A stretch of 64,000 nt of DNA from a virus (IMGVR_UViG_3300034200_001896:21764-85763); one strand, 5' to 3'. Shown: positions 20,923 to 46,921, counted from the stretch's first letter. The notes: generated by a model from the sequence alone, not told the origin. Program-made: numbers and translations.

Positions 20923-21135
20923 ATGGAAATCAAAGAAGGTGACTTGGTTTGGAATAAATTTAATGGCTATGGGACGGTACTAAAGATTAGGATTGAATAT
21001 TGCGCCGTCTATTGGTATGCACCGACAAACCCAACAGAGAACACAAACTATCTTAAACCAGATTATCATGTAAAGTATGTAAGACAGTGGAAACGTAATG
21101 TTGAAGATAAATGCAGCGTTAGCTCAATTGGATAG
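20923..21135 (+). CDS. KOW/Tudor-like paralogue
   Basis: IKEGDLVW...YGTV...VYWY. Confidence 0.65.
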   Translation: MEIKEGDLVWNKFNGYGTVLKIRIEYCAVYWYAPTNPTENTNYLKPDYHVKYVRQWKRNVEDKCSVSSIG

Positions 21136-21138
21136 AGC
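21113..21138 (+). pseudogene. 5' fragment (acceptor strand plus D-arm) of a tRNA, probably Arg
   Basis: GCAGCGT-TA-GCTC-AATTGGATA-GAGC, then abruptly HNH coding sequence. Confidence 0.65.
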
Positions 21139-21481
21139 CGTGATGCCTTAGTCTATGGCAATTAGAACAAAGCAATATGCACTTATCAAGTTCTTGTTTT
21201 AACCTTTCATCGCTAACCATCTTTGCTCTATCCCATGCCATATCTTTCTTTGATGGGTCTAAGTGATGAAAATCATAAACAGAGAAATGATATGTCTGTT
21301 TGCAATCGTGACATTTATCGCCTTTATCTTTTATGGCTTTTATTTTTCTCTCTCTCCAACGGTTAATACAATAACTACTAAAACATTTCTTACATCTTGA
21401 CATAAATCTACCTTTAGTTCCAGCTTTCTTGTAACCGTTTAATTCATTAATTTCTACTTTACAATCTGTGCAAACTGACAT
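21119..21481 (-). CDS. HNH endonuclease
   Basis: KGDKCHDC...DFHHLDP...ELDKCILLCSNCHRLRH; AGGAG RBS. Confidence 0.85.
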   Translation of the reverse strand: MSVCTDCKVEINELNGYKKAGTKGRFMSRCKKCFSSYCINRWRERKIKAIKDKGDKCHDCKQTYHFSVYDFHHLDPSKKDMAWDRAKMVSDERLKQELDKCILLCSNCHRLRHHGSIQLS

Positions 21482-21495
21482 ATAGTATCTCCTAT

Positions 21496-21564
21496 GCCCC
21501 GTGTAGCGGACCTACTAGTTGGTCTTCTAAACCGACAAAAACCGTTCGACTCGGTTACGGGGTG
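21496..21564 (+). tRNA. Atypical tRNA-Arg(TCT) with aberrant D-arm
   Basis: GCCCCGT/ACGGGGT-G acceptor; TTGGT-CT-TCT-AA-ACCGA; AACCG-TTCGACT-CGGTT; G at position 8. Confidence 0.7.
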
Positions 21565-21605
21565 CTATAGTAAGTAGTTGGGTAAAACAGAAAAGTCTAC
21601 CTAAA

Positions 21606-21809
21606 ATGACAACAATAAATGTTGGTGATTTGCTGCGTACTAATAGTTGGTTTGGTGTTGTGATGCGTATAGATGAAGGAAATAATTACGAAGAAACTGC
21701 ATATATGGTTCACTGGTTCTTCCCTGACAATAGAAATCCTATTAGTATGATAAACGGTTATAATGCATTAAAGTATAGAATTAATGTATTGACAATACTT
21801 GGAAAGTAG
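21606..21809 (+). CDS. KOW/Tudor-like paralogue
   Basis: INVGDLL...FGVV...YMVHWF. Confidence 0.65.
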   Translation: MTTINVGDLLRTNSWFGVVMRIDEGNNYEETAYMVHWFFPDNRNPISMINGYNALKYRINVLTILGK

Positions 21810-21817
21810 TGTATAAT
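21789..21817 (+). promoter_or_regulatory. Consensus sigma70 promoter
   Basis: TTGACA-N17-TATAAT upstream of tRNA-Tyr. Confidence 0.85.
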
Positions 21818-21842
21818 ATTTTCCCTCACGCTGTGCTGTTAT

Positions 21843-21925
21843 GGGGATGTTGACAGTAAGGTTACTGACGTGGACTGTAAATCCGCTGCCATTAGGCCAA
21901 CTAGGTTCATGTCCTAGCATCCCCA
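21843..21925 (+). tRNA. tRNA-Tyr(GTA)
   Basis: GGGGATG/CATCCCC-A; GTGGA-CT-GTA-AA-TCCGC; long variable arm. Confidence 0.85.
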
Positions 21926-21970
21926 TCTTTTTTTCTTGACTTTCCCTCCAGCTTCGGTATACTAGCCGCC

Positions 21971-23085
21971 ATGTTAAAGACAAGAAAGCTGAATCTAGGT
22001 GACTTGGTTGCGGTAACAGAGCATAAAGACAATATCACTATTGGAATGATTGTAGAATTTGACGATGCTTATACTACCTACAAGATTGAGTGGTGCAACG
22101 GTAAACATATCTGGGCTAAGGCATCGTGGATAACTACCCAACAGTACCGTAACATTTTCCTTGACTGGAAGGCACAACTGTTATAGGATACTTCCCGTGA
22201 ACGACCCTTACATCGGCAAGTTGTTCCTCATGGATTGGCATCCTCCATCGTTCGGTGTTAACCCGACTCAGCGTATATATCTTTTCATGGTTGTCGGCAA
22301 GGGTAAAGAACATCATACCAAGCAAGGTTATATTTGTGAGTCCCTGACTTCGGGTAGGCAATATATCTACAACGAATACGAGATTATCTCAGGACTTGTG
22401 CAATACAAGCAATGGAAGGAGCAAAATAATGTTTGATATCCGCGAAGGTGATAGTTTGTTGGGTTATAGTATTGCTACCAAGGATTATATTGTTGGCATC
22501 GTTACTGATATTAAGCTTGACGCAATTGCCCGTAAGCAGTATAATGTTCATTGGGCTGATGCACAAGTTGGATGGTTGGACCATAACACCGCTGTACGTT
22601 TGCGTGAGAAATATCTTGACTTCCGCAACAAGTAGGGTATAGTGTTTATCATGGATATCAAAATCGGTGACAGTGTTGCGTTCATTGGCAGTGTTGCATC
22701 CACTGGTAAATCTTTCAGCTACGTTGGCGTGGTGTCAAAGATATCTAACCATAACCCTCGTTATTGTGTTTCTTGGAATGACGGTACGGAAACTTACGAA
22801 GATAGTCCTGAGATTGCCATTTTCCGAAAACAATACCTTGACTTCCTCAACAAGTAGGGTATAGTAACTATCATGGATATCAAAGTCGGTGACAGTGTAG
22901 CATTTAAGCCTAGGAAAACGTCTAACGAATACGATTTGGGAATCGTTGTAAATATAATTCCAAACAAAAATTACTGTGTAAAGATAATATGGAATGATGT
23001 TGCATTTCCCTCTAGTGAGACTGTTGAGTTAATGGCGGACGCTCTAGAGTTCCGTCAGATTTATCTTGACCTTCTCGCAAAGTAG
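21971..23085 (+). repeat. Second run of five KOW/Tudor-like genes (21971, 22197, 22429, 22651, 22873), most with own leaderless promoter
   Basis: GDLV/GDSV...G(I/M/V)(I/V)...W motifs; TTGAC-N17/18-TAtagT promoters embedded in the upstream gene end; 22197 is closer to the GKLF family. Confidence 0.75.
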
Positions 23086-23100
23086 GGTATAGTAGTAATC

Positions 23101-23442
23101 ATGAAAGCGACCGATTGCGTTGAGTGCGGAGAGCAGTTCAATCTTTATTCCCCTGAGAAGCGCAGGACAGGCGGTAAAGCTAATACTTGTCCCCTGTGTA
23201 GTGAGGAGACTGCCGTTAAATATGCGGGAGTCTCAGCAGGTGAAGGCAAGATGGGTAGTGTGCAGGTATTGAAGTTTTCCTCTAATGCTGACCGTGCAGC
23301 TTATCTTTCATTCTGGAAAGCTACAAGCGGTATGAATACAGGCAAGAACTGTCAGATGCAGTTTCGTGCCAAGGAACCAAACGTAAAGTTTAAGACTGTC
23401 GCAACCTTTACAGGCAACGTAAATCACAAGGGGAAGGCATAA
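23101..23442 (+). CDS. Zinc-finger hypothetical protein
   Basis: CVECG...CPLC; leaderless after TTGACC..TATAGT. Confidence 0.65.
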   Translation: MKATDCVECGEQFNLYSPEKRRTGGKANTCPLCSEETAVKYAGVSAGEGKMGSVQVLKFSSNADRAAYLSFWKATSGMNTGKNCQMQFRAKEPNVKFKTVATFTGNVNHKGKA

Positions 23443-23610
23443 TGTCTGACGTACTTTCGTCTAAGTATCTTACCCGTGATAATCGTCCAACCATTCGTCA
23501 ACTGTTTGAGAAACTTGGAATCAACAAAGGCGAGCATGATGAAAATGTTAGGGCAGCACTTGAAGAACTTATTACGTTGAGAAATCACAAGGGAAGGAGT
23601 TGATAATACA

Positions 23611-23841
23611 ATGCTTATTGAAAATAAGAAAAATCTGGATATCAAAACCTTAGATTCTATCAACAGCGGCGCTGCTTTTTGTTTTTATGAAAGTCACTTG
23701 GGCAAAGGTATATATATGAAAACTGCTCTACCGCCCAATGGTAAGAAGTACGCTATAGTATCTCTTGAAGATGGAGAGATTGAGGAATATGATAGGTCGG
23801 TGAGAGTGACCGTCCTTAATGCAAAGGTAGTTATAGACTAA
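23611..23841 (+). CDS. Hypothetical protein
   Basis: AGGAG RBS, 76 aa. Confidence 0.55.
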   Translation: MLIENKKNLDIKTLDSINSGAAFCFYESHLGKGIYMKTALPPNGKKYAIVSLEDGEIEEYDRSVRVTVLNAKVVID

Positions 23842-24434
23842 CCAATATATCTATCTTGCTTTGATATATTGTCCTTTGCCCAAAGAGGTTGGAGATTATC
23901 TAAACTCCAGCACTTAAGAAAGTTCTCGTCCTCTATAGAATCAAACGGCAACCAAGATTGAGGTATGATGTGGTCAATATGCCATTCACCGTGGTTATCC
24001 CATGTCATACCTTCTTTAAACTTGCTTTCAAGATGCTTACGCAAATCATCAGGGGTATAACCAAGACGTTCAAATATCTTCTTTGAAGGCCAACCATTCT
24101 TTAGGGCACGCTTGATAGAAACAAAAAGGTTCTTATACCAACCTCTAACTTCATATGACTTCTTCCAGTGTTTCCTCTGTATCTCTTTATAGCGTTCTGG
24201 ATTCTGTTCCTTCCAGCGTTTTGTATTCTCTCTTTGACGTTCCTTATTACCTTTTCTCCATTGACGGGAACGCTGATTAATGGTATCTTTGTTTTGTAGA
24301 GAGTAGTCCTTATCTTTAGAATGTTTGCAGGAACGACATATACTTTGATGCCCGTCTTTCTTTGTGGCATCCTTATTGAAATCAGCAAGTGACTTTTCTT
24401 CTTGACATACACGGCAAAGTTTGGTAGTATCCAT
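23838..24434 (-). CDS. HNH endonuclease (WHIDH type)
   Basis: KLCRVC...CRSC; LESKF..GMTWDNHGEWHIDHIIP...NLQPLWAKDNISK; ACTACTTA box 6 nt upstream of ATG. Confidence 0.85.
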   Translation of the reverse strand: MDTTKLCRVCQEEKSLADFNKDATKKDGHQSICRSCKHSKDKDYSLQNKDTINQRSRQWRKGNKERQRENTKRWKEQNPERYKEIQRKHWKKSYEVRGWYKNLFVSIKRALKNGWPSKKIFERLGYTPDDLRKHLESKFKEGMTWDNHGEWHIDHIIPQSWLPFDSIEDENFLKCWSLDNLQPLWAKDNISKQDRYIG

Positions 24435-24489
24435 ATACAGTAAGTAGTCAATCGGATAAGAATAGACCAAAGAAAGTGAGGAGATAATA

Positions 24490-24582
24490 ATGGGACATCC
24501 AAAGAAAAACCGCCCACGCAAGGGACGCAGGAAGATTGGTAGCAAGAAGCGTAAGGCTCAGAGCAATAACCGAAAGAAGTAA
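24490..24582 (+). CDS. 30-aa highly basic peptide
   Basis: GAGGAG RBS; MGHPKKNRPRKGRRKIGSKKRKAQSNNRKK. Confidence 0.6.
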   Translation: MGHPKKNRPRKGRRKIGSKKRKAQSNNRKK

Positions 24583-24950
24583 ACCATGAAAAGACTTAAG
24601 CGTGGCGACCTAGCTTGGATGATTTTTGATGGTAAGCAAAGCATGGTAATGATTACGGAGTGCAGATACAAGACTGATGTTTATCTTTGTGCCCCTGTTG
24701 CCGTAGCGCATCATGCATCATGGGTGTCAGGCTTTAGGTTGGAGCGTATAGTACCGTAAGGATTGCCTCCCCCTGCCACTACCGTAGTAGGGTGGGGGGA
24801 GGTCGTGAAAAAAACAAAATTTCCTGTGCAGCCAGCCGCCGTTAAGGCGGTATTCTAGTATATATTAGTACATATATATATGTATGGGGTAGTGGCGGCT
24901 AGCTCTTGACAGGGTACTACTGTAGTGGTAGAGTAGGAGGGGGCTACAGA

Positions 24951-25286
24951 ATGTATTATTCTTTTAGACAAAACAACAGCGGCGGTAGATTTCAAGGTCC
25001 AGCAAACACTGTATGGGTAGAAGCTGATAGCGCAGAGGAAGCTAACAATATATTTACAACTCTGGATAACTGTTACTTCGACCCTGACTTTCAGTTTGAC
25101 TGTGGATGCTGCCGTGCTCGTTGGTATGAGGCAGACGAGCAGGCTGCTAAATCACACTACGATATGTTGCGGGAGATAGATAGAGATATTAATAGTGAAT
25201 GGAAATCAATGAGTGATTTGATTGGCAGAAACAAGATTCCACAGCATATGGTAAGGCACAAGAATGGCACCGTCCAGTTTATCTAA
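24951..25286 (+). CDS. Conserved phage hypothetical protein
   Basis: FRQNNSGG.F...VEADSAEEAN...CGCC..RW; TTGACA promoter and AGGAGG RBS. Confidence 0.65.
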   Translation: MYYSFRQNNSGGRFQGPANTVWVEADSAEEANNIFTTLDNCYFDPDFQFDCGCCRARWYEADEQAAKSHYDMLREIDRDINSEWKSMSDLIGRNKIPQHMVRHKNGTVQFI

Positions 25287-25446
25287 AAACATAGGTAGAC
25301 TATGCATCGATGCTCTCAAAGGCACCATGTATATGATTGTCGGTGTTGAATGTGAAATTAATTCATCGCCTAAATATATACTATACAATGTTCAAAGCGG
25401 TGTAAGGTTTTCGTTGTATGTAAACGCTCTTGACAACCCCAACCTC

Positions 25447-25566
25447 GTCAAATGGCTGACGCCACCTCGATGACACGTCAGAAAAATGACGTGACAGAAG
25501 TTTGACATGTCAGAAATTTGACGTTAGCTGCTGTAAAGAAAGTTTGCTTCCTGTCAAAAATTTGAC
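25447..25566. repeat. Phased cluster of G(T/C/A)CA-N6-TGAC boxes
   Basis: Boxes at 25447, 25461, 25477, 25493, 25509 (16-bp period for the last four) and 25553. Confidence 0.75.
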
Positions 25567-25712
25567 AGGAAGCTCCAATCCAATACACTAATAATATCAT
25601 GGGTTTAGCGTTTCGTCAATGAAAGTCTTTGACCCTTGTAACCATGCGGAATCATTAGGGAAAGAGAATATTGGCGCGCCGTTTTTCCCCTTGTCCACCT
25701 ATCTTTTTCCAC

Positions 25713-25793
25713 CGTCACCACCATGAGACTGTCACACGGATGCGACACCGTGAAAACCGGTTGCTTGCAAGCGTGGCCGTTTCGTGAGAATAT
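25713..25793 (+). promoter_or_regulatory. Tandem TGTCAC-type boxes plus promoter
   Basis: Boxes 25713 and 25730, TTGCAA 25765, N17, GAATAT with upstream TG. Confidence 0.7.
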
Positions 25794-25837
25794 ATGTCCA
25801 CTTCAAACGACGGACTAACCGAAAGGCAAACGAAACT

Positions 25838-26491
25838 ATGAACCTGAATCTTAAGTGGACCATGGGCAACGCAAAGCTTGTCAAGACCTCCGGTGAGGCT
25901 TACCGTGTACTTGGCTTTGGCATCCCTGCCGATATGTCTTTCGATGGTGGCAATACTTGTCCCGGTGCTAACGCTTGCCGTGGAGTGTGCTACGCTAAGC
26001 AGGGACGTTATATCATGGCAGGGGTTAAGAATGCTCGGATGCATAACTTCAATGCCTCCCGTGATTATGTTTCCTTCGTTGTGTCTGCCATTGCTGACCT
26101 GACCCGTTTGACTAAGCGTTATAACGTGGTTCGTTTGCACGATAGCGGGGACTTCTACTCTCAAGAATATCTCAACGCTTGGAAGGCTATTGCGTTTGCT
26201 TTCCCTAACACTATCTTTTATGCTTACACTAAATCTCTGCACCTTGACATTGAGAGCGATAAGCCTGCTAATCTTCGCATCGTTCAGTCTCTCGGTGGCA
26301 AGTATGATGCAAAGCTTAACCTTAATCTCCCTCACTCCCGTATCTTTTCCACTGACGAGGACCGCATTGCAGCGGGATACATTGACGGTAACGTGAGTGA
26401 CATTCCGGCAATCGAGGGAGAGATTAATATTGGTTTGGTTTATCACGGTGTCCGCAAGCTTACGTCTGCACAGAATGAGTTTTTCCGCTAA
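25838..26491 (+). CDS. Gp88-like phage protein (three-Cys motif)
   Basis: GNAKL, TCPGANACRGVCYA, RLHDSGDFYS, FYAYTKS. Confidence 0.75.
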   Translation: MNLNLKWTMGNAKLVKTSGEAYRVLGFGIPADMSFDGGNTCPGANACRGVCYAKQGRYIMAGVKNARMHNFNASRDYVSFVVSAIADLTRLTKRYNVVRLHDSGDFYSQEYLNAWKAIAFAFPNTIFYAYTKSLHLDIESDKPANLRIVQSLGGKYDAKLNLNLPHSRIFSTDEDRIAAGYIDGNVSDIPAIEGEINIGLVYHGVRKLTSAQNEFFR

Positions 26492-26706
26492 TCATTAACA
26501 TAATGCCGCTGCCCTAGCGATTGATGCTAGGGTTTGCGGCGGCTGTAACGTCCCTTTACACCGGAAATATGGCGCGCAAAATATTGCCAGCCGCCTGCCT
26601 GTCAAGCTCTTTCTGATGGGTGTCACATCCATGCGACTGTCACCCGAACGTGACACCTAAAAACCGGAAGCTTGCACGTACGGGGAAGAGCAGCTATATT
26701 ATGTGC

Positions 26707-26874
26707 ATGAACGACGAACACATGTGCGAGCGGTGCGGTGAGGAACCTGCCTCTAATCTTTTGGAGCATACGCTGTATGCGGAAGCGGTTTGCGGATTGT
26801 GCCTGAAGGATGAACGGGAGCACCACGAAAATGAAAACGTTCTTTACATGGAGGATTATCGGGCAGCGATGTGA
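26707..26874 (+). CDS. Small zinc-binding hypothetical protein
   Basis: CERCG...CGLC; leaderless start. Confidence 0.55.
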   Translation: MNDEHMCERCGEEPASNLLEHTLYAEAVCGLCLKDEREHHENENVLYMEDYRAAM

Positions 26875-26941
26875 AACCTGAAGGCGACAGGTAGAAAAAG
26901 GTAGCTTGCAAAAAACCGGAACCCGTGAGATAATAACCGCC

Positions 26942-27175
26942 ATGAACGACAACATCCAGTGGACGAACGATGCGACGGCCAATGTGGCAAAGTGGATTGA
27001 CCGTGACCCTGCCTTCTACAACGTTGCAAAGAATAATGCGAAGGGACGGCAGCCGTATCTGAACCTGCGTTCATGGATGAAGGAACTGGGTTTCCATAAG
27101 ACTCCTGACCAGATTTCTTTTTTTGATTCCACGCTTGACATTCGGCAGCTCAATCTTTTCATCAAGGAGCTTTAA
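26942..27175 (+). CDS. Hypothetical protein, paralogue of next gene
   Basis: WTNDATANVA.WI...TPD. Confidence 0.6.
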   Translation: MNDNIQWTNDATANVAKWIDRDPAFYNVAKNNAKGRQPYLNLRSWMKELGFHKTPDQISFFDSTLDIRQLNLFIKEL

Positions 27176-27177
27176 TC

Positions 27178-27411
27178 ATGGCTGATACCTCTTACAACGG
27201 TTGGACGAACTACGAGACTTGGAACGTTGCGCTGTATATCCAGAACGAGGAGCCGCTTTATAGGATTGCCTTGCGGAGTGATGATTATGCTGATTTCCTT
27301 AGAGAGTCAGAACATATCCGTGGAGTGAACACTCCTGATGGTGTACAATGGGATAGCGGAGAGCTTGATTGGGATGAGCTTGATGATATGATTGTGGAGC
27401 TTCGCTCTTGA
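27178..27411 (+). CDS. Conserved phage protein (YNGWTNYETWNVAL family)
   Basis: YNGWTNYETWNVALYIQNE...TPDGV; AGGAG RBS. Confidence 0.7.
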   Translation: MADTSYNGWTNYETWNVALYIQNEEPLYRIALRSDDYADFLRESEHIRGVNTPDGVQWDSGELDWDELDDMIVELRS

Positions 27412-28015
27412 TTCATCGTAGCAACGCAATCTTTTTCATTCCCTCGCTGTATATTCCTGTTGGGATTATCGCTTATCTTTGGAGGATACATTGATTATTA
27501 ATCTGAACGACTTTCGCAAGCTGCACGGTATTGACAATCAAACTGACTTTTGGAATCTGTTGACGGATTGGAGTGAGAGTGCTAGCGTTCCCGCTATGTG
27601 CTCTCAGCTGTGTGAGGTTTCCCCTGATGCGAAGTGCGAGCATGGTGCTCCCAGTATCATTGTGCGTGTGATTGGAGAGAACTGATATACATTGCCCCGC
27701 TGCCCTGTTAATGACAGGGTTTGCCCGGGCTGGATTGCGCGAGGGACAATATTCAGCGCGGCAATATTTCCCAGCCCCCGGCAAGTCAAGTGGAAAGTTC
27801 ACGGTGTCACCGGCTGGTTACTGTCACCCGAACGTGACACCTAAAAAAGAGGTTGCTTGCCAAGTGAGGCAGGGTGTGAGAATATATGTCCCGTTGATGC
27901 AGCACGGGTGAGCGGTGAAGGTGAAACCCGGAAGTGACACCCTGAAAAAAGAAGCTTGCAGGTTCGAAGGTTCCACGGTATAATAAGCGCAACCCAAACG
28001 AAAGGTAACAAAACA

Positions 28016-28315
28016 ATGTCCAAGTCCTCTTCTGTGTTCGTGGTTGACGGTGGTGATTACTATCAGGATGTGCGTGGTGCTTTTACTTCGCTCGATGCTG
28101 CGAAGGATTATGTTCTCTCTGATATTCTTCTGGACGTGCTGGATGGTGACGAGTATGTGGACACCATGAAGTCGGTTGTTCTTGAGTATCAGGGTGGCGA
28201 CCTTGTAAACCGGTTTGAGGTTTCCTGTCAGGGCTTTGACTTCGACGTGTGCAAGGTGACGAACAAGAACAAGGTGTTGGAGTCGCTGGACCTGAAGTGT
28301 GAAACCGTGCGGTGA
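28016..28315 (+). CDS. Hypothetical protein
   Basis: ORF after cassette promoter; stop codon inside next box. Confidence 0.6.
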   Translation: MSKSSSVFVVDGGDYYQDVRGAFTSLDAAKDYVLSDILLDVLDGDEYVDTMKSVVLEYQGGDLVNRFEVSCQGFDFDVCKVTNKNKVLESLDLKCETVR

Positions 28316-28393
28316 CACTCCGCAAGTAGCAGGTTGCATCCCGTCCCGTCCTGCTGTATATTATCACCACACTAACCGAAAGGCAGAAACAGA

Positions 28394-28615
28394 ATGATTA
28401 CCCGTCAGCTTGGCATCGTTGTGGAGAATCAGAAGGATTGGACGCTGGATGCTCTCCTTAATCAGTCCTGTATGAAGGCAACGCATTGCGTCAATGCCGA
28501 AGACCCTCACGGTGAGCCTGCCCGTGTTTGGGCAGAGGGTGAGGGACACGCAGACAACATTGCCAAGTTTCTTGTTTCGTATGGTTACACCATCATTGAC
28601 ACGGAGGAGGTTTGA
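28394..28615 (+). CDS. Hypothetical protein
   Basis: Leader ACTAACCGAAAGGCA shared with gene 25838. Confidence 0.6.
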   Translation: MITRQLGIVVENQKDWTLDALLNQSCMKATHCVNAEDPHGEPARVWAEGEGHADNIAKFLVSYGYTIIDTEEV

Positions 28616-28883
28616 TTAGTGAATGACAAGCGTATGATTTTCTCGCCTTTGACCCATGAACAATGGGGTACGCTTAAGTATTGTCACAAGTGCGGGAAAC
28701 AGGAACGCTTGTATTTGCTGGAGGGTGACCTTTGTTTTGGTTATGTTTTCTGCGCTAAATGTTTCAGCGAACTAGCCCCCGCTATTAGCGCAAGGCTAGA
28801 CGAACAGATTAGGGATGCAAAGATTGGCATGGTTGTGTTAGTAGTTTTGGTTTTGCTCACCATTTACTTTAGGGGTTAACATC

Positions 28884-29626: not shown

Positions 29627-29680
29627 CAGGTAGAAAAAAGGAAGTTGCAGTTTCCCCTAACCTGTGAGACTATATACCCC

Positions 29681-32649: not shown

Positions 32650-32689
32650 CGTCTTAAAACGCCTATATTACATACGGAGGGATTTCTTC

Positions 32690-35263: not shown

Positions 35264-35274
35264 AGGGGAACTAT

Positions 35275-35523: not shown

Positions 35524-35586
35524 TTATTTTAGATTGATACCTAGGTAAAACTCATGTATGATGGCAAGACGACTGGAGATTTAAGT

Positions 35587-36111
35587 ATGAAAGTTCTTGC
35601 GCTGTCTGCTAATTATGAGCCTCTTGGTGTTGTCTCTTGGGAACGGGCTATTACGCTTGTTTATTCAGATAAAGTTTCTGTAGTTGAAGAATATGATTGT
35701 TTTGTGCGTTCTCCGTCAGTTCAAGTTAAAATTCCTGCTGTTGTTGTTTTTAAAAAATCGTTTATAGGTAATAAACGTAATTCTGTTAGATTTTCTCGTA
35801 AGAATGTTTGGATTCGTGATGAGGGAAAGTGCCAATATTGTCATTTGCATGTTTCTCTTTCTACTTTCACTATTGACCACGTTATTCCAAAAACTCTCGG
35901 TGGAAAAACCGTTTGGGATAATGTAGTTGTATGCTGCTATTCTTGTAATCAAAAAAAGGGCGATAAAAGTTTGAAAGAAGCCGGATTTAAACTATTTAAA
36001 GTACCACGGAAGCCATTTAAGTTACCGTATCTACAAGAAATAACAGATGGACAATACAACTTGGAAAAAAATATTCCCCAAGAGTGGAAATTCTATCTAG
36101 AAAGATTTTAA
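35587..36111 (+). CDS. HNH endonuclease (McrA-like)
   Basis: VLAL.ANYEPL, RDEGKCQYC, TIDHVIP..LGG...WDNVV.CC..CN..KG. Confidence 0.9.
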   Translation: MKVLALSANYEPLGVVSWERAITLVYSDKVSVVEEYDCFVRSPSVQVKIPAVVVFKKSFIGNKRNSVRFSRKNVWIRDEGKCQYCHLHVSLSTFTIDHVIPKTLGGKTVWDNVVVCCYSCNQKKGDKSLKEAGFKLFKVPRKPFKLPYLQEITDGQYNLEKNIPQEWKFYLERF

Positions 36112-40660: not shown

Positions 40661-40661
40661 A

Positions 40662-41531
40662 ATGGAACAAATGCAAGAATTAAGACAATACATTAGAGAA
40701 GTTTTACGTAAAATTAAAAAAGACCAAAAACAAGAATTACGTAAAGAAGTACGTGAGCAAAGAGAATTACGTAAATTAGTTCGTGTAATGCTAAAAGAAA
40801 AGCAAGATACTGTACAACATAGTTCTACTGGTATTAATGCATTAGAAAAATTACTTGGTAGTATTGTTCCTATATTAGAAACCGGCTATAAAGATTTAAA
40901 AACAGATGCTGCTCAACGTAAATCTTTTAAAGCTCACATTCTTCGTGCAATACAGAACTTATTATCCACCGCTTCAGTATATTTTTCAGCTGATAAAAAA
41001 GGTGGAGAACCTACCGCTGCGCCTGCTTTAGCAGTTCCCCCTGCTAATCTAGAACAACCAGAAGCTGAATTAAAAGAACAAGATGAAGAAGCAGGTCCTG
41101 AAACTGACCCACAATTTATTGATATCAATAAAGATAAAAAAGGTAAAGAAGAAAAAGCTAAAAAAGACCCTGTTAATGCTTTCCAAACCGTTCAAGGAGA
41201 AGACTTAACTGGTAGAAACTTTGCTCTTGAAACTTTCAAGAAAATTCAAAAACAGATTTTGGAAACATATTCTTTATTATCAAACGAACAAGACCGCGAA
41301 ATATTTTATGATTACTTGCTAACCAACACTAAACTATATTTTGATAAGTTTGAAACTGAATTAGAAGCTACCCCGGCGGAACCCACAACTCCTGAATATG
41401 AGGCTGAAAAGGCAAAGAAAGATGCATCATTACAACCAACAGGCCAAGATGTTGCGGGCTTAGAACAGCCTGTAGAACAACCAGCTGGATTAGAAACTGC
41501 TGCAGAGGAATTGCCAGAACCAGAAGTATAA
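40662..41531 (+). CDS. Hypothetical (probably structural) protein
   Basis: GGAG RBS; 289 aa. Confidence 0.6.
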   Translation: MEQMQELRQYIREVLRKIKKDQKQELRKEVREQRELRKLVRVMLKEKQDTVQHSSTGINALEKLLGSIVPILETGYKDLKTDAAQRKSFKAHILRAIQNLLSTASVYFSADKKGGEPTAAPALAVPPANLEQPEAELKEQDEEAGPETDPQFIDINKDKKGKEEKAKKDPVNAFQTVQGEDLTGRNFALETFKKIQKQILETYSLLSNEQDREIFYDYLLTNTKLYFDKFETELEATPAEPTTPEYEAEKAKKDASLQPTGQDVAGLEQPVEQPAGLETAAEELPEPEV

Positions 41532-41900
41532 AGAAGAAGGACATGGCGTTCAAACTACACTAGTGAAATTTTCTAGTTAAATCTAAATATTAAAAAGGAA
41601 TATATAAAAATGAATCCATTAAAACGGAAAAAACTCTATCGTCTTGAATTATCTAAGCAAAAAAATAAAACAGAAATTCAAGTTGAACAAAAAGTAACCG
41701 TTACTGAACCAATAAAACTTGCTGAAGCAATACAAGAAACTGCACCGGTTGAAGCTGCTGAATTGCCAATGGGTCTTAAAGTTAGCTTACCAGTAGAAAC
41801 TTCTACAGAAACTGCAGCAACTGAATCAGTAGTAGAAAACAAGAAAGAAAAGAAAAAGAAATGGTCTTCACAAGATGCATAATTGTGTTATAGTAGGTTA

Positions 41901-42182
41901 ATGACCACTAAAACATATAAACAAATTGGTGAAGAAATTGGTAGTTTAGTAGATGAAAAAAACGCAGCATATGGTAGTTCATTTGCTGAATGTCACAAAA
42001 TTCTGAGCGTCTTATATCCTAATGGTATCCAACCAGAACAATATACAGACGCTCTTGCTATTATAAGAGTAATAGATAAATTATTTAGAATAGCTAATAA
42101 GAAAAATGCATTTGGCGAATCTCCATGGAATGATATAGCAGGATATGCTATATTAGGAGTCGCTAATCATGATAAAAAATAA
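41901..42182 (+). CDS. Nucleotide-modification-associated helical protein (DUF1599-like)
   Basis: EKNAAYGSSF...RVIDKLFRI...DIAGYAIL. Confidence 0.6.
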   Translation: MTTKTYKQIGEEIGSLVDEKNAAYGSSFAECHKILSVLYPNGIQPEQYTDALAIIRVIDKLFRIANKKNAFGESPWNDIAGYAILGVANHDKK

Positions 42183-42564
42183 ATATAATAATACTTGTGA
42201 AGATTATAGTATTAGTAAAATATTAAGAGAACAAAAAAGAAGTAATGATTATTTTGAAGTATTATTAAATAATTTAACATTAGAAGAAATAATAGCTTTA
42301 AAACTAGAATTAACTTATAAATCAATTGGTTTTGTATTACATGGTTATCCTTTGTGGTCTAGTACTAATTATATTGTAAAAGATGCATTATTAAAATATG
42401 CTGTTTCAGCTTCAAAAACAAAAACTGAAGCAAGAAAATTATTAGGATTAACTAACATTAAATTCTTTAGATTATTAAAAAAATATAAAATTAATAAGTA
42501 TTTTAAACCAGAGGAAAGCATCGATGTTAATAACAGAAATTCAATTAAAGAAAATATATCCTAA
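42169..42564 (+). CDS. Protein with Fis-like C-terminal HTH
   Basis: KTKTEARKLLGL...F..LLKKY. Confidence 0.5.
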   Translation: MIKNKYNNTCEDYSISKILREQKRSNDYFEVLLNNLTLEEIIALKLELTYKSIGFVLHGYPLWSSTNYIVKDALLKYAVSASKTKTEARKLLGLTNIKFFRLLKKYKINKYFKPEESIDVNNRNSIKENIS

Positions 42565-43096
42565 TATAAAAAAAGATAAATTACAAACTTATGTTAAGGC
42601 TTTTAATAATGTTTTTCCTACCTATGGTATCAATACCCCTAGAAGGATTGCTGCATTTCTTGGACAAGTTGGCGTCGAAAGCGGAGAATTAAAATACGAT
42701 AAAGAATTGGCTTCTAAATGGAATAAAAAAGATGTTGGTAATCGTTTTGAACCAATTGGAACTTTATATGAAGGAAGAAAAAACTTAGGTAATACACAAG
42801 TTGGTGATGGACCTAAATTTATTGGTCGTGGAATTCTTCAGTTGACAGGTAGAGCTAACTATGAGAACATGTCTAAGATATTAGGAATCGATTTAGTTCA
42901 TAATCCTGAACTAGCTTGTGACCCAGAAGTCAGCACTAAGATTGCTTGTGAATATTTTAAGAAACGTGGATTGTTGGAATTAGCTGACGAATGGAATTTA
43001 GAAGAAATTACTCGTCGTGTTAATGGTAATGCTAAACTACATCATGATATTAGAGTAAAATATAGTGAAACTGCTTTAAAGACTTTAGGTGAATAA
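42524..43096 (+). CDS. Glycoside hydrolase family 19 endolysin
   Basis: IAAFLGQVGVES, LGN...DG.KFIGRGILQLTGRANY, ITRRVNG. Confidence 0.9.
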   Translation: MLITEIQLKKIYPNIKKDKLQTYVKAFNNVFPTYGINTPRRIAAFLGQVGVESGELKYDKELASKWNKKDVGNRFEPIGTLYEGRKNLGNTQVGDGPKFIGRGILQLTGRANYENMSKILGIDLVHNPELACDPEVSTKIACEYFKKRGLLELADEWNLEEITRRVNGNAKLHHDIRVKYSETALKTLGE

Positions 43097-43283
43097 TGAA
43101 TAATTATAAATTCCCATGTGATGAATGTAGCTGGCCTAATGCGCCAAATATGTTTGCTGTTGCGCACATTGGATTTAAGTGGTATTGTCATAGGTGTTTA
43201 GATAAATTTTTAAAAGAAGAAAAACGTAAGCAAAAAGAAAAACAACAAAGATTGGCACAAGAACAAGAACAAGAAAGTAACAA

Positions 43284-43355
43284 GCCTGTATAGCACAGTG
43301 GTAGTGCAACGGTTTTGTAAACCGTAGGTCGGGGGTTCGAATCCCTCTACAGGCT
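43284..43355 (+). tRNA. tRNA-Thr(TGT)
   Basis: GCCTGTA/TACAGGC; ACGGT-TT-TGT-AA-ACCGT. Confidence 0.9.
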
Positions 43356-43369
43356 CTAAAATAAAATAC

Positions 43370-43444
43370 GCGAATGTAGCTCAGTTGGTTTAGAGCAGCC
43401 GCTTGATAAGCGGCAGGTCAGTGGTTCAAGTCCACTCATTCGCA
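43370..43444 (+). tRNA. tRNA-Ile(GAT)
   Basis: GCGAATG/CATTCGC; GCCGC-TT-GAT-AA-GCGGC. Confidence 0.9.
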
Positions 43445-43454
43445 CTGGAAACAT

Positions 43455-43628
43455 ATGAAACATAATATTGGCAATTTAGTTTATGATGGAACAAGTATTG
43501 GTTGGATTATAGAAGTTGGCCGTTCAGGATATTATCATATTGAGTTTTGTAATAACCAAAAAGGTTGGTATAGTGGAGAAGCAGTTAGCCTTCTAGTAGA
43601 AGCATTAAAATCAAAATTAAATAAATAA
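43455..43628 (+). CDS. KOW/Tudor-like paralogue inside the tRNA cluster
   Basis: MKHNIGNLVY...IGWII...YHIEF; 57 aa. Confidence 0.6.
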   Translation: MKHNIGNLVYDGTSIGWIIEVGRSGYYHIEFCNNQKGWYSGEAVSLLVEALKSKLNK

Positions 43629-43634
43629 AAATAA

Positions 43635-43715
43635 GGGCGAGTAGGAGAATTGGTAAATCTAGCGGACTCAAAATCCGCCGCGCAAGCACTGTCGGTTCGA
43701 TTCCGACCTCGCCTA
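43635..43715 (+). tRNA. tRNA-Leu(CAA)
   Basis: GGGCGAG/CTCGCCT; GCGGA-CT-CAA-AA-TCCGC; variable arm. Confidence 0.9.
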
Positions 43716-43718
43716 TTT

Positions 43719-43790
43719 GCAGGAATAGCTCAGTGGTAGAGCATCACGTTGCCAACGTGAGGGTCGTGGGTTCAAATCCCACTTTCTGCT
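43719..43790 (+). tRNA. tRNA-Gly(GCC)
   Basis: GCAGGAA/TTTCTGC; TCACG-TT-GCC-AA-CGTGA. Confidence 0.9.
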
Positions 43791-43791
43791 T

Positions 43792-44137
43792 GTTAGCGGT
43801 AGGTAGTAGGCTCAGAAGTAGCCATCCGAAAGGACATGGATAGTAATATCTGTGCTTTAATGAGTGAGACAAAATCCTTTACTAGTGATATAATTCCGTT
43901 AACAGCGGGGAGCGATGCGATGTTCTGCCCGAAGAAAGCACAACGAAACCTGATGTCAGTTGTGTGGACAAACCGCTGCTAGGTAAACTCCAATATATCT
44001 TAATGTACTAGGAGGTTGGGTAATAGGAAAGTCAGATTTACTGATGGGACAGAAGCACGCACAAGATATAATCATTGAAAAGATTATATTGTTTGTTTCC
44101 TCCCGCTCTTTGGTGTAGTAACACACCTACTGTTAAC
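43792..44137 (+). ncRNA. Large structured ncRNA with a split 23S rRNA H43/H44-like core (possibly GOLLD-related)
   Basis: Terminal 13-bp helix GTTAGCGGTAGGT/ACCTACTGTTAAC; GTAGGCTCAGAAGTAGCCATC, TTTAATGAGTG, GGTGTAGTAACACAC; no credible ORF. Confidence 0.7.
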
Positions 44138-44158
44138 AGTTTTTCGAAAGGGCATATA

Positions 44159-44759
44159 ATGGCTAAGAAAAAAGAAACCTATTGGAATTATAGAATTTAT
44201 GCTAAAGAATGCATTAGTAATTCAGGAACCAATTATATTGAATATGGTATAACTGAAGTATATTATAAAGGAGATAAAATTGAAGGTTATATAGCTGATT
44301 TTATGACTCCATGGGGCGAAACTGAAAAAGATTTAAAATTAAATTTTGATATGATGAAGAAAGCTTTTGAATATCCAGTATTAACTATTGATGATTTAGA
44401 ACCAAAGAAAAAATCTAAAAAAATAAAAAAGAAGAAAGCTGGAAAGAAAAATGCGAAAAACTAGCGTTAAAGATTGGAATTATAGAATATTTAAATCTGG
44501 TGATTTTTTTGGAATAGTTGAGGTTTATTACGATGCTTCTGGCAATCCTGTTGGTTATAGTGACTATAATTATCCATTTGGCTACTCGGAACAAGAATTA
44601 AAACTTGATATTTCCAATATGTTAAAGGCGTGTAGACAACCTACCTTAACTCCAGAAGACTTTGAAAAAAAGTCTGTACGCAAAAATAAAATTGTAGTAC
44701 CATCAGTTAAGAATCCACCAAGTAAAGAAGCATTAATGAGGGGAAATAATAATGTCTAA
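44159..44759 (+). CDS. Two tandem paralogues (44159-44464, 44451-44759), WNYRI...EVYY family
   Basis: Both share WNYRI, GI.EVYY, P.G..E..LK, M.KA...P.LT. Confidence 0.65.
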
Positions 44760-45008
44760 TTCTTGGAAAATAGAAGAAATTTTTGTAGTATATGAAAATG
44801 CCAAAGAATTTAAAAAACAGTTGCTTCGTTCCCCAGAAGGTGCTACATTACAAGTCAAGATTCGCAGATATTCATCAAACAAAACAGTTAATACAGAAAC
44901 GTTTGTTGTTAAAAGCCGAACAGACCCTAGTTTAATAGCAGCTATACAAGAAGTAGAAGAACGACTATTAATAAATAAGAGTAAATCTAAAAAGAAATAA
45001 GGTGAACA

Positions 45009-45635
45009 ATGGTTTTCGGAAAATATCTCAATAACGAAAAAGAAAAGCAGAAAGAAGCGGCTCCACAACGTAAGTCTAGAGAAAAAGACGAAGACAATCT
45101 TGACGTAGAACACCAAGACGGACGTATATATTTTTATACTGAAGTAAACAAAGCGTCTATTTTAGACCTTAATAAAGCTATACGTTCTAGCGAAGAAGAA
45201 ATGTTACATACAGCTAATGTTTTAGATATTTCACCGCCACATATTAAGATACATATCAATAGTCCCGGTGGAAGTCTTTTTGACGGCCTTGCCGCTGTTG
45301 ATTATGTTCGTAAATGTAAAGTGCCGGTCCATTCCATTGTTGAAGGCATGGCCGCATCAGCGGCAACACTTATTTCAGTAATGGCTCACAAACGTTCTAT
45401 TAATAAACATTCTTATATGCTCATCCACCAACTCTCATCTGGAGCAATTGGAAAGTTTGAAGAATTGATGGATGATATGGAAAATAATAAAGCTTTAATG
45501 AAAGCAATTAGAGAAATATATCTGGCGAGAACTAAAATCCCAGAAAATCTGTTAAAAGATATCCTTAAAAAAGATATCTATTTTGACGCAAAGCAGTGCT
45601 TGAAGTATGGTTTAGTAGATAATATTATCGAATAG
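45009..45635 (+). CDS. clpP: ClpP-like protease
   Basis: HINSPGGS, GMAASAATLIS, MLIHQLSS, YGLVDNII. Confidence 0.85.
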   Translation: MVFGKYLNNEKEKQKEAAPQRKSREKDEDNLDVEHQDGRIYFYTEVNKASILDLNKAIRSSEEEMLHTANVLDISPPHIKIHINSPGGSLFDGLAAVDYVRKCKVPVHSIVEGMAASAATLISVMAHKRSINKHSYMLIHQLSSGAIGKFEELMDDMENNKALMKAIREIYLARTKIPENLLKDILKKDIYFDAKQCLKYGLVDNIIE

Positions 45636-45649
45636 AAAAGGAAAATAAA

Positions 45650-46000
45650 ATGAAGACACTTGTTATGACCGCAGTAGTAGCAGCAATGTTCGTAGGTTGC
45701 ACCAGCAAGACCAGTGTACCAGCCGCCGGTTCTACCTCTACCACTGCTCCGGTAGTAGAAGTATCAGCGCCAGCAGTAACAACACAAACTTCCCCTACTG
45801 TAGCCGCTCCAGTTGCCCCACAAAGCGCCGTTGCGGTACCATCCGTAGGTGGAAGCGCTTCTGCAACAGCAGCTTCTAGCGCCTCGACAGCAGCTGCTAC
45901 ATCAACCGCATCAACCGCATCAACCGCATCAGGCGCAGCAGGCAACGCAGCACCAGCAGCCGGCGCAGCAGGTTCTGCCGCTGCAGCAGATAAGAAGTAA
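45650..46000 (+). CDS. Ala/Thr/Ser-rich lipoprotein
   Basis: Lipobox FVGC; low-complexity tail with short CATCAACCG repeats. Confidence 0.65.
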   Translation: MKTLVMTAVVAAMFVGCTSKTSVPAAGSTSTTAPVVEVSAPAVTTQTSPTVAAPVAPQSAVAVPSVGGSASATAASSASTAAATSTASTASTASGAAGNAAPAAGAAGSAAAADKK

Positions 46001-46067
46001 TTTTTAACAATCCCGCAGGTGACGGCATGGGGAGTCCGTTTTTTTAATGGACAAATAGATGTCGTCT

Positions 46068-46592
46068 TTATTGTTTCCAATTACCATCTTTATTATTGAA
46101 ATGTTCTTCTGAATGGCAAGTTGGACAAAGAACTTCTAAATTTTCTATAGTATTATTTTCTCTATTTCTATCTTTGTGATGTACGACTAATACTTCTGGA
46201 ATTTTAGAATAATCACATCTTTCACAAATCTTTTGTTTGTTTCTAAAAGCTATATCTCTATATACACGCCCAGCATTCGTATAATGTGGTGGTTGAATTT
46301 GTTTTATCCCACCAATTCTCTGAGCTATGTCTTTGTGTTCTCTACAGCAAAAAAATAAACCGCTTCTTGAATTCTTTTTTTTAGATTCACTTAAATAAAA
46401 CATTTCTTTACAATAAGCGCATTCAACATTTGGCGTGTTTATTAAAGCGAATTTTGCTATTCTTTGTTTTTTTATTGCTTCACCTGTACATTTTTTGGTA
46501 CAATACTTAGCGTTGCCTCTATTTACTTCTGATGGTTTTGCTTCAAAGGGTTGTTCGCAGTTTAAACAATTTTTAGTTATTGTAGTAATCAT
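46068..46592 (-). CDS. HNH endonuclease with N-terminal zinc fingers
   Basis: CERC...LVVHHKDRNRENN..ENLEVLCPTCH..EH; GAGG RBS. Confidence 0.85.
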   Translation of the reverse strand: MITTITKNCLNCEQPFEAKPSEVNRGNAKYCTKKCTGEAIKKQRIAKFALINTPNVECAYCKEMFYLSESKKKNSRSGLFFCCREHKDIAQRIGGIKQIQPPHYTNAGRVYRDIAFRNKQKICERCDYSKIPEVLVVHHKDRNRENNTIENLEVLCPTCHSEEHFNNKDGNWKQ

Positions 46593-46605
46593 ATATTATC
46601 CTCAT

Positions 46606-46681
46606 GGGGGATGGGACTGCTTGGAGTGGTCGTCTGCCTTGCACGCAGAAATTCAGTTCGGTTCGAATCCGAAATCCTCCA
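46606..46681 (+). tRNA. Atypical tRNA-Ala(TGC)
   Basis: GGGGGAT/ATCCTCC-A with G3-U70; TCTGC-CT-TGC-AC-GCAGA; G at position 8. Confidence 0.8.
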
Positions 46682-46921
46682 CTTATAATTAGTGTAGACT
46701 AACTGTTTTGCACCAAAAAAAGAATCGTCCATTATGAAACAAAATAAATCTAGCAATACAATGTGGTTAAGAATAATGGTAGTACTTAATACAATTGCTG
46801 TTGCTGGTTATATTTTGTATGGTGAGTGGGAAAAAAAACAACCACGGATGGTAAAACATGTTTGCCAAACCGTGGCTGCTGACCAAGATAAAGGATTGGT
46901 CGCCCTTACTTGCTTAGAAGA

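Follow-up and report, generated by a model that had tools for sequence, protein, structure and literature searches.

In a 64,000-nt stretch of DNA from a lake-water giant phage (the window), two HNH endonuclease genes each start close to an atypical tRNA gene. We consider it probable that both pairs are free-standing homing-endonuclease cassettes, each of which targets the gene of one isoacceptor and carries a diverged copy of the respective tRNA. Both cassettes lie within what is left of resident tRNA genes, a point that is missing from the preliminary description of this DNA. As is typical of homing genes, HNH1 and HNH2 vary in presence between close relatives and are sharply bounded in otherwise similar DNA, and they lie outside of introns or inteins.

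The two HNH/tRNA pairs and their proteins

ARAGORN predicted 14 + strand tRNAs and no others in the window; Arg(tct) is located at 21496-21565, and Ala(tgc) at 46606-46682. The HNH genes are the following:

20287..20670, + strand: HNH0, the third HNH gene of the window, ORF of 127 aa, phrog_2255, 43% identical to HNH1
21119..21481, − strand: HNH1 endonuclease gene, ORF of 120 aa, phrog_2255 match
46068..46592, − strand: HNH2 endonuclease gene, ORF of 174 aa, PF13392, PF01844, and phrog_1271

The start of HNH1 is 14 nt from the 5′ end of the tRNA-Arg(UCU), and that of HNH2 is 13 nt from the 5′ end of the tRNA-Ala(UGC), with the HNH gene on the − strand and the tRNA on the + strand in both cases. 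Each gap contains a Shine-Dalgarno-like run, and both ORFs stand alone, i.e. each has its own start codon and ribosome-binding site. The two close divergent pairs that had been claimed are therefore real, including the ribosome-binding site in the gap. HNH0 is co-directional with its neighbours tRNA-Lys and tRNA-Gln, separated from them by gaps of 1 nt, and is also found in the sister contig L171.

HNH1 matches phrog_2255 (“HNH endonuclease”, E 2e-28) and has no Pfam match above the cut-off. HNH2 matches PF13392 with 32.6 bits (cut-off 24.8), PF01844 with 25 bits (cut-off 21.4), and also phrog_1271. No GIY-YIG family is among the Pfam and PHROG matches of HNH0, HNH1, and HNH2. The pairwise similarity of HNH1 and HNH2 is not significant (E 0.05), in agreement with the earlier assignment to unrelated subtypes, and the two represent separate families. 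In the alignment of the HNH2 family (A1), H138, H139, N146, N151, C156, C159, H160, and H164 are invariant; in that of the HNH1 family (A2), H72, H73, C105, C108, and H109 are invariant, and N107 and H113 are nearly so. The profile matches, together with the conserved catalytic His/Asn residues and zinc-binding Cys pairs, characterize HNH1 and HNH2 as predicted HNH (His-Me finger) endonucleases.

Both cassette tRNAs have a G at position 8, both are below the 29-bit gathering threshold of Rfam RF00005, and neither has a match even at E≤10. Their description as non-canonical can thus be retained, but not the view that they differ in this respect from all other tRNAs of the window, because 4 of the 14 ARAGORN tRNAs fail Rfam, i.e. 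the two cassette tRNAs, Ile-tat (19974), and Tyr-gta (21842).

Remnants of resident tRNA genes at both sites

At site 1, the sister contig L171 lacks HNH1 and contains an intact canonical tRNA-Arg(UCU) instead. The comparison yielded the following features:

21113..21138, + strand: 5′ fragment of the canonical tRNA-Arg(UCU) resident at this site, comprising nt 1-26 with the acceptor strand and the D arm, zero mismatches to L171
21458..21486, + strand: promoter-like site, 10/12 of the sigma-70 consensus, consensus match only
21496..21565, + strand: cassette-borne variant tRNA-Arg(UCU), 70 nt, G8, 3-bp D stem (ARAGORN)
21606..21809, + strand: ORF of 67 aa in the insert, missing at this spot in L171
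21789..21817, + strand: sigma-70 consensus promoter, 12/12, facing the remnant of the resident tRNA and, after it, the variant tRNA-Tyr
21821..21840, + strand: 3′ remnant of the resident tRNA-Arg(UCU), 20 letters identical to the 3′ end and trailer of the L171 tRNA-Arg, by eye
21842..21927, + strand: variant tRNA-Tyr(GUA) (ARAGORN, no Rfam match)

L171 and the window are 85-95% identical up to 21138 (85% over 15828-19709, 91% over 19898-21138). The homology breaks at this position, which is nt 26 of the intact tRNA-Arg(tct) of L171, and resumes at 21958. The insert within the resident tRNA-Arg(UCU) has a size of ~680 nt and consists of HNH1, the variant tRNA-Arg(UCU), and the 67-aa ORF. It takes the place of ~nt 27-57 of the resident gene, so that ~31 nt including the anticodon arm are gone. 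The final six codons and the stop codon of HNH1 are antisense to the resident 5′ fragment. The 3′ remnant, a match that was read by eye and is too short to be reported by BLAST, comprises the end of the T loop, the 3′ strands of the T stem and the acceptor stem, and the trailer. Downstream, the variant tRNA-Tyr(GUA) occupies the place of a canonical tRNA-Asp and a canonical tRNA-Tyr in L171. The four sister contigs of site 2, which are fragments, gave no match to site 1.

The variant tRNA-Arg has an intact acceptor arm and a canonical anticodon loop and T arm, and its D stem has just 3 bp. With this degenerate D arm, it may be non-functional. A custom tRNA-Arg profile missed it, and a second copy was not found. 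The promoter-like site upstream ends 10 nt 5′ of the variant tRNA-Arg and overlaps the HNH1 start codon. The possibility that the variant tRNA-Arg represents the 3′ half of the resident gene was rejected: there is no pairing between the two acceptor strands, and therefore it is a separate gene. The 67-aa ORF has no Pfam or PHROG family match; by eye (unscored), it resembles a paralogue of the series of ~70-aa ORFs on either side.

The presence of resident tRNA halves on both sides of the insert would also be expected if the inserts were tRNA introns and the flanking fragments exons of a still functional tRNA, and the lone HNH gene within the anticodon loop of a tRNA-Arg in another contig (L092) fits such an arrangement. 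We regard this explanation as extremely improbable in view of the missing ~31 nt including the anticodon arm, the location of the HNH gene on the strand opposite to the tRNA, and searches at both sites that gave no match to intron families at E≤10.

At site 2, the window contains the following features in addition to HNH2:

46606..46682, + strand: cassette-borne atypical tRNA-Ala(UGC) with G3:U70, G8-G9, a 6-bp D stem, and a 7-nt variable region (ARAGORN)
46683..46717, strand unassigned: conserved two-part element that contains the ACTAnTTA box, same spacing in five related loci
46724..46731, + strand: residual part of the 3′ acceptor strand that belonged to the L167-type resident tRNA-Ala, from an alignment and from BLAST homology to L167 and L168, which ends at 46724

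Four sister loci are available for this site. Two have only a tRNA-Ala (L167 and L168), one has neither gene (L170), and one has an HNH with 80% amino acid identity and a different tRNA-Ala (L169). In comparison to the HNH-free sister contigs, the homology breaks at 46068 and 46724, and it restarts exactly at the HNH2 stop codon (46068). HNH2, the atypical tRNA-Ala(UGC), and a spacer of ~40 nt thus replace the resident tRNA-Ala, with the exception of its 3′ acceptor strand. A 5′ remnant of the resident tRNA-Ala was not found at site 2, and the replacement at this site may have occurred by ordinary recombination. The identity between the window and the related locus L007 is 86-98% on the protease side, 42-68% for the tRNA, and 72-90% for the HNH. 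The earlier claim that nuclease and tRNA travel as a unit is corroborated by the empty, tRNA-only, or paired sister sites with their sharp homology breaks, and by many unrelated contigs in which an HNH family is again paired with its isoacceptor.

Recurrence in other viral contigs and the atypical tRNA-Ala class

Searches of viral contigs with single sequences gave only 2 and 1 loci, and profile-based searches were needed. We analyzed the best 80 of 270 (HNH2) and the best 80 of at least 553 (HNH1) tblastn-confirmed stretches, which represent 65 and 76 distinct loci, respectively; the counts are therefore not a census. For the HNH2 family (best 80 of 270), a full divergent tRNA-Ala or tRNA-Ala-like gene is located at a distance of ≤25 nt in 20 of the 65 loci, with gaps of 0-21 nt, and a tRNA-Ala or a fragment thereof at ≤60 nt in 39 of the 65, leaving 26 without a nearby tRNA-Ala. 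In comparison, Ala(tgc) accounts for 43 of the 327 tRNAs in these loci. For the HNH1 family (best 80 of at least 553), 29 of the 76 loci have a tRNA-Arg(tct) at ≤150 nt, Arg(tct) represents 35 of the 270 tRNAs, and 27 loci have no tRNA in the fetched stretch. The check for recurrence in other genomes that had been asked for was thus positive, and the HNH/tRNA pairing, which recurs in other viral contigs, exceeds chance. The recurrence may, however, be due to inheritance of a single cassette instead of several separate events. The search of annotated phage records gave HNH and tRNA matches that were all short, plus one unannotated record of 595 kb.

Split tRNAs are also found elsewhere. Fragments of the tRNA-Ala 5′ end abut the HNH 3′ end in five loci (L028, L046, L048, L050, and L015). 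In three loci (L095, L099, and L101), the HNH gene is flanked by a 5′ fragment of tRNA-Arg, a full tRNA, and a 3′ fragment, and a further locus (L088) has only the 5′ fragment and the full tRNA. By eye, a GCTC/GAGC D stem is present in 5 of 6 resident tRNA-Arg fragments versus 1 of 11 antisense-cassette tRNA-Arg genes.

In the atypical tRNA-Ala class (11 sequences), compensatory changes were observed in 15 of 22 pairs, 10 of 10 sequences retain G3:U70, and the UGC anticodon is located in a 7-nt loop. Judged by its compensated cloverleaf, G3:U70, and UGC in a 7-nt loop, the atypical tRNA-Ala is predicted to be a functional tRNA-Ala. Its D arm, and often also the T loop, is unlike that of canonical tRNA. 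Such a structured, conserved, and deviating tRNA could itself be the cargo that matters, i.e. the odd tRNAs would be variants that withstand tRNA-cutting defences of the host, and the main role of the HNH would be to spread or amplify them, as reported for SegB and the tRNA-Tyr in phage T6; SegB-driven amplification of a tRNA gene overcomes Septu (PMC13096335). We rate this explanation as unlikely, because many HNH-linked tRNA-Ala genes are canonical (e.g. L007, L018, and L020), for these hosts neither a defence system nor cleavage is known, and the landing inside the gene of the same isoacceptor would be left unexplained.

Regulation, homing, and known systems

The preliminary description proposed an HNH mRNA with a start beyond the 3′ end of the tRNA. 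The leader of this mRNA would be the tRNA complement, and the tRNA or its precursor would pair with it and repress the nuclease. This is compatible with homing cassettes, and several observations are in its favour. The ribosome-binding site fills the gap of 13-14 nt, and therefore there is no room for an HNH promoter between the tRNA and the start codon; the same applies to the 20 divergent HNH2 loci with gaps of 0-21 nt (best 80 of 270). Genes of the HNH2 family are antisense to local tRNAs in 55 of 73 tRNA-bearing loci. In addition, the element with the ACTAnTTA box lies at a fixed spacing beyond the tRNA-Ala in five distinct loci (L007/L169, L008, L009, L010, and L043; seven listed rows, two pairs of which are each one place), the HNH proteins of which are 60-80% identical to HNH2.

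Nevertheless, repression by the tRNA in cis appears quite improbable. For the HNH1 family, the geometry is not conserved: the 29 tRNA-Arg(tct) neighbours are co-directional in 18, convergent in 7, and divergent in 4 cases (best 80 of at least 553), and HNH0 in the window is co-directional with its tRNAs. Beyond either tRNA, sigma-70-like sites were not found on the − strand, whereas sites on the + strand occur, one with a 12/12 consensus. The ACTAnTTA boxes were indeed found on the − strand (21571-21578 and 46686-46693), the latter in the conserved element beyond the tRNA-Ala, but the motif occurs at chance frequency in the window. With 18 copies versus 18.1 expected and no strand bias toward genes, it was rejected as a phage promoter motif and kept as part of a clade-specific conserved element. 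Hexamers similar to −10 boxes (≥4/6 matches) follow the tRNA-Ala 3′ end in 18 of 21 cases versus 98 of 226 for other tRNAs of the same loci (Fisher p 1.8e-4). However, the tRNA-sense strand also has 18 of 21, and the flanks are more AT-rich than the controls (0.71 versus 0.62); therefore the hexamer test is uninformative on direction. One RNA-library contig spans the tRNA-Ala together with 2 nt upstream of its 5′ end and 76 nt downstream of its 3′ end. The contigs are strandless, but this extent is more consistent with a + strand transcript of the tRNA than with a leader of the HNH mRNA. The short gap and the divergent layout are the compact internal structure of the cassette and no evidence of regulation. 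In four metatranscriptome runs, the contigs of which show neither the strand nor the ends of transcripts, both flanks were covered and 46114-46566 (HNH2 ORF) was uncovered, a gap in contigs that carries no weight.

For homing, the junctions and the D-arm differences suggest that the HNH would cut the canonical tRNA gene near nt 26-33 (Arg) or nt 39-49 (Ala). Repair would copy the cassette from the donor, the tRNA serving as target and homology at once, and the imported tRNA would restore decoding. The nuclease would spare this copy, as its D arm differs from the canonical gene, and so does the T loop in many relatives. More speculatively, and with little probability in our view, the HNH families of phages and possibly CPR bacteria could form a broad “break one, bring a spare” system with one isoacceptor per lineage, in which a re-shaped spare (G8-G9, 6-bp D stem, non-TpsiC T loops) decodes but evades the nuclease, and the divergent form gates the nuclease via opposite-strand tRNA transcription through the conserved element. 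The cassette explanation itself, if true, would jointly account for mosaic phage tRNA clusters, tRNAs missed by standard tRNA finders, and nuclease genes among tRNAs; the tRNA gene would be the target as well as the landing pad, and the spare copy would be the compensation for the damage caused by the nuclease. Resistant and cleavable tRNA alleles would then be available as natural pairs, with which the target recognition of the HNH can be tested directly, and the results point to a conserved non-canonical shape of tRNA-Ala.

The preliminary description knew of no account of this arrangement, and full-text literature searches, limited to main articles, agree, as they retrieved no report of a split tRNA that houses an HNH together with a spare tRNA, and none of a nuclease under antisense control by a tRNA. 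According to PMC2330249 and PMC13096335, SegB of phages T4/T6 is a free-standing GIY-YIG homing endonuclease within a tRNA gene cluster, which cuts tRNA genes of SegB-less phages and drives the inheritance of itself and neighbouring tRNA genes; its expression has been discussed as tightly controlled, including via tRNA transcript processing. It recognizes a shared T-loop motif, reportedly without isotype preference (PMC13096335). The window likewise has free-standing nuclease genes in a phage tRNA cluster. In contrast to SegB, they encode HNH rather than GIY-YIG enzymes, each family is associated with one isoacceptor, and the genes lie in a broken tRNA gene with a spare copy instead of between intact tRNA genes. 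SegE, a free-standing phage endonuclease of intronless homing, is named in PMC2330249. Other nuclease ORFs reported in a phage tRNA cluster are also located inside the cluster, and expression control via processing of the primary transcript has been proposed; the passage on them mentions no split or spare tRNA.

Integrative elements that insert into tRNA genes restore the tRNA 3′ end; they depend on integrases, and the part of the tRNA that they duplicate is limited to the overlapping end. The cassettes share with them the tRNA gene as landing site and a carried sequence that keeps a working tRNA, but they contain a nuclease gene and a whole diverged tRNA, and no integrase was seen.

SegF/SegG and marker exclusion exemplify intronless homing by free-standing phage endonucleases. 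As would apply to the cassettes, a nuclease gene beside a resistant target allele converts sensitive alleles in co-infecting relatives and co-converts the flanks. The window differs in that remnants of the old target are present on one or both sides, and that a complete second gene with an altered structure would be the resistant allele. This suggests that at least one cassette junction arose by illegitimate joining.

Two divergent HNH/tRNA pairs

The window is the final 64 kb of an 85.8-kb lake-water viral contig that represents about one third of the genome, as estimated by CheckV. ARAGORN identified 14 tRNA genes in the window, in every case on the + strand, and 104 of the 127 ORFs chosen in a crude ORF map of the window lie on this strand as well. 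Two reverse-strand HNH genes, HNH1 (site 1) and HNH2 (site 2), are each paired with a tRNA gene:

21119-21481, - strand, HNH1 ORF, 120 aa; 14-nt gap to the 5′ end of tRNA-Arg(tct)
21496-21565, + strand, variant tRNA-Arg(tct) (ARAGORN)
46068-46592, - strand, HNH2 ORF, 174 aa; 13-nt gap to the 5′ end of tRNA-Ala(tgc)
46606-46682, + strand, tRNA-Ala(tgc) (ARAGORN)

The preliminary description had claimed divergent pairs of unrelated HNH subtypes with odd tRNAs, and this observation was borne out. The gaps are 14 and 13 nt, G8 is common to both tRNAs, and neither tRNA matched the Rfam tRNA model at the gathering score or at E ≤10. HNH1 matched phrog_2255 (E 2e-28) and nothing above the cut-off in a Pfam scan, HNH2 matched PF13392 and PF01844 above the cut-off as well as phrog_1271, and the two belong to different families; a comparison of the proteins detected no likeness. 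The statement that the paired tRNAs are unlike the others in the window holds in part: both were missed by Rfam, but so were tRNA-Ile(tat) at 19974 and tRNA-Tyr(gta) at 21842. The tRNA-Ile(tat) (19974-20058, ARAGORN) has a long, unstructured variable region, and the same call was obtained in L171, the sister contig for site 1.

The window contains two more HNH genes. The third (20287-20670) is 43% identical to HNH1 and co-directional with its neighbours, tRNA-Lys on one side and tRNA-Gln on the other. The fourth (35554-36111, + strand, PF01844 with E 1.4e-15) has no tRNA nearby.

Homology breaks at the two sites

At site 1, a resident tRNA gene has been interrupted by an insertion. L171 is 85-95% identical to the window over 15828-23098, with the same series of tRNAs, and also holds a canonical tRNA-Arg(tct), tRNA-Asp, and tRNA-Tyr. 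Its homology ends at window 21138, i.e. at nt 26 of its tRNA-Arg, and 20 nt of the window (21821-21840) are letter-identical, by eye, to the 3′ end and trailer of the same gene. HNH1, the variant tRNA-Arg, and a 67-aa ORF lie between these pieces of the resident tRNA-Arg, of which about 31 nt, including the anticodon arm, are lost from the window. The final six codons of HNH1 overlap the old D arm and are read from its antisense strand. The possibility that the variant tRNA-Arg is the other half of the resident gene was ruled out because the acceptor strands do not pair; the variant has an acceptor stem of its own and is therefore a second gene.

Two further features were observed around site 1. 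Where L171 has the canonical tRNA-Asp and tRNA-Tyr (L171:5911-6078), the window has a single atypical, Rfam-missed tRNA-Tyr(gta) at 21842-21927, downstream of a perfect sigma-70 consensus promoter (21789-21817). The first tRNA cluster is surrounded by a run of ORFs of about 70 aa (20923-23085) that look paralogous by eye, each beginning with M-x-I-K-x-G-D or similar; one copy lies within the HNH1 insert, and two that were scanned had no family match.

For site 2, four sister loci were located via the adjoining trypsin-like protease gene. Two of them (L167 and L168) have a tRNA-Ala(tgc) and no HNH gene, one (L170) lacks both, and one (L169, on the same contig as L007) has an HNH with 80% protein identity whose partner is a canonical, quite different tRNA-Ala. 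Homology to the HNH-free contigs breaks at 46068, exactly the HNH2 stop codon, and at 46724, the start of 8 nt that are shared with the acceptor 3′ strand of the L167-type tRNA-Ala. Between the window and L007, identities are 86-98% on the protease side, 72-90% in the HNH gene, and 42-68% in the tRNA, where the region varies most. Site 2 appears to be the same kind of event as site 1. The HNH-bearing sister also has an extra insert of about 276 nt (L169:4510-4778, equivalent to L007:2091-2360) between the conserved element past tRNA-Ala (described below) and the protease-side flank.

Recurrence of the pairs and shape of the linked tRNAs

A profile of HNH2 relatives comprised 302 proteins at E ≤1e-10. 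Among the best 80 of 270 confirmed viral loci, 65 of them distinct, 20 have a divergent full-length tRNA-Ala, or a tRNA-Ala-like gene missed by ARAGORN, within 25 nt of the HNH start, and 39 of the 65 have a tRNA-Ala or a fragment of one within 60 nt. Among the 327 tRNAs of the HNH2 loci, Ala(tgc) is found just 43 times. The preliminary description had proposed a search of phage genomes for the divergent arrangement, and it recurs in these other viral contigs. For HNH1, the best 80 of at least 553 confirmed viral loci included 76 distinct ones, of which 29 have a tRNA-Arg(tct) no more than 150 nt away; 35 of the 270 tRNAs in the HNH1 loci are Arg(tct). In these loci, the linkage of HNH and tRNA is general and isoacceptor-specific.

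Pieces of resident tRNAs were sought with profiles over tRNA-masked loci. In five loci of other phages (L028, L046, L048, L050, and L015), the HNH 3′ end adjoins a 5′ piece of tRNA-Ala that stops at nt 38-49. In L095, L099, and L101, a tRNA-Arg 5′ fragment (to about nt 30) and a 3′ fragment (from about nt 31) surround a full tRNA-Arg and an antisense HNH, and L088 has only the 5′ fragment and the full tRNA. The break point in the old tRNA-Arg is about equal in these four loci and in the window, while the internal order varies: the HNH gene comes first in the window and the tRNA comes first in the four others.

Sister contigs without HNH, sharp homology breaks, and recurrent pairing support the suggestion that nuclease and tRNA move as one unit. 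The HNH/tRNA pairs are real, recurrent, and mobile, and the most likely reading is that of homing cassettes that are isoacceptor-specific and bring a diverged spare tRNA, which would be intronless homing in a new form. SegB of T4 lies in the tRNA cluster; it cuts tRNA genes at the T-loop motif and is a driver of the inheritance of this region (PMC2330249). SegB homologues are associated with tRNAs without isotype preference (PMC13096335), and a survey noted that tRNA clusters of phages contain HNH genes (PMC6409571). A full-text literature search found no description of a "split tRNA plus spare" layout, which is also unmentioned in the consulted part of a jumbo-phage overview (PMC7824862).

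At least 10 other loci have, next to an HNH2 relative, a tRNA-Ala of the same conserved atypical class as the one in the window. Members of this class have G8-G9, a D stem of 6 bp with a D loop of 5 nt, a variable region of 7 nt, and a T loop that often lacks the usual T-psi-C letters; G3:U70 is kept in 10 of 10 sequences, and 15 of 22 pairs show compensatory changes. Canonical tRNA-Ala also occurs among the HNH-linked genes, so the atypical shape is frequent in the module and not its defining trait. A GCTC/GAGC D stem was seen by eye in 5 of 6 resident tRNA-Arg fragments versus only 1 of 11 tRNA-Arg genes of antisense cassettes, a contrast that would fit a spare tRNA escaping the nuclease. 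The variant tRNA-Arg of the window has a D stem of only 3 bp and may be non-working.

An HNH1 relative without a spare tRNA interrupts a tRNA-Arg(UCU) at its anticodon loop, in antisense orientation and with tRNA halves on both sides (L092:2340-2900). Distant HNH2 relatives in 80 cellular genome contigs (L172-L251), mostly Patescibacteria MAGs, are 28-60% identical to HNH2 in the best segment (most 29-46%) and pair with one of two tRNAs. ARAGORN found tRNA-Ser(tga) 44 times and tRNA-His(gtg) 27 times, on the + strand, in 69 of the 80 loci, and two further tRNA-His genes (L242, L244) were seen by profile only. The tRNA is nearly always immediately downstream of the HNH and shares its strand. 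In two loci (L233, L236), the region upstream of the HNH also has a 5′ fragment of tRNA-His.

Transcription around the pairs

The ribosome-binding site occupies the gap between HNH and tRNA, so the HNH promoter must be inside or past the tRNA. The preliminary description had proposed that the tRNA or its precursor could be a cis-antisense repressor of HNH, a reading that is unsupported by the analysis and, as a general principle, has three observations against it. A sigma-70-like site was looked for on the - strand past either tRNA and none was found, while the + strand has a 10/12 match (21458-21486), whose end is 10 nt upstream of the variant tRNA-Arg, and a 12/12 match at 21789-21817. The -10-like hexamers past tRNA-Ala have no strand specificity. 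In the HNH1 family (best 80 of at least 553 loci), 18 of the 29 tRNA-Arg neighbours are co-directional. The full-text search found no case of an antisense tRNA controlling a nuclease. The ACTAnTTA box that had been highlighted is not enriched in the window (18 observed, 18.1 expected), but it is part of a two-part element with fixed spacing just past tRNA-Ala (46683-46717), which is conserved in the window, L007/L169, L008, L009, L010, and L043 and is the one point in favour of the repressor.

One RNA-library contig spans tRNA-Ala together with 2 nt ahead of its 5′ end and 76 nt past its 3′ end; the contigs are strandless. An Ala-rich ORF (45650-46046) with a lipoprotein-like signal, read by eye from the N-terminus, has the deepest RNA coverage in three of four libraries (contig depth 19.8-41.6); in library X5, the ClpP contig is equally deep. 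RNA contigs from three runs end at 45997-46029, adjoining a hairpin and T run that were seen by eye and left unflagged by a terminator scan. In the ClpP gene (45066-45287), low-depth RNA contigs carry C-to-T differences (12 in library X13, 2 in X11), which may reflect a strain difference or damage.
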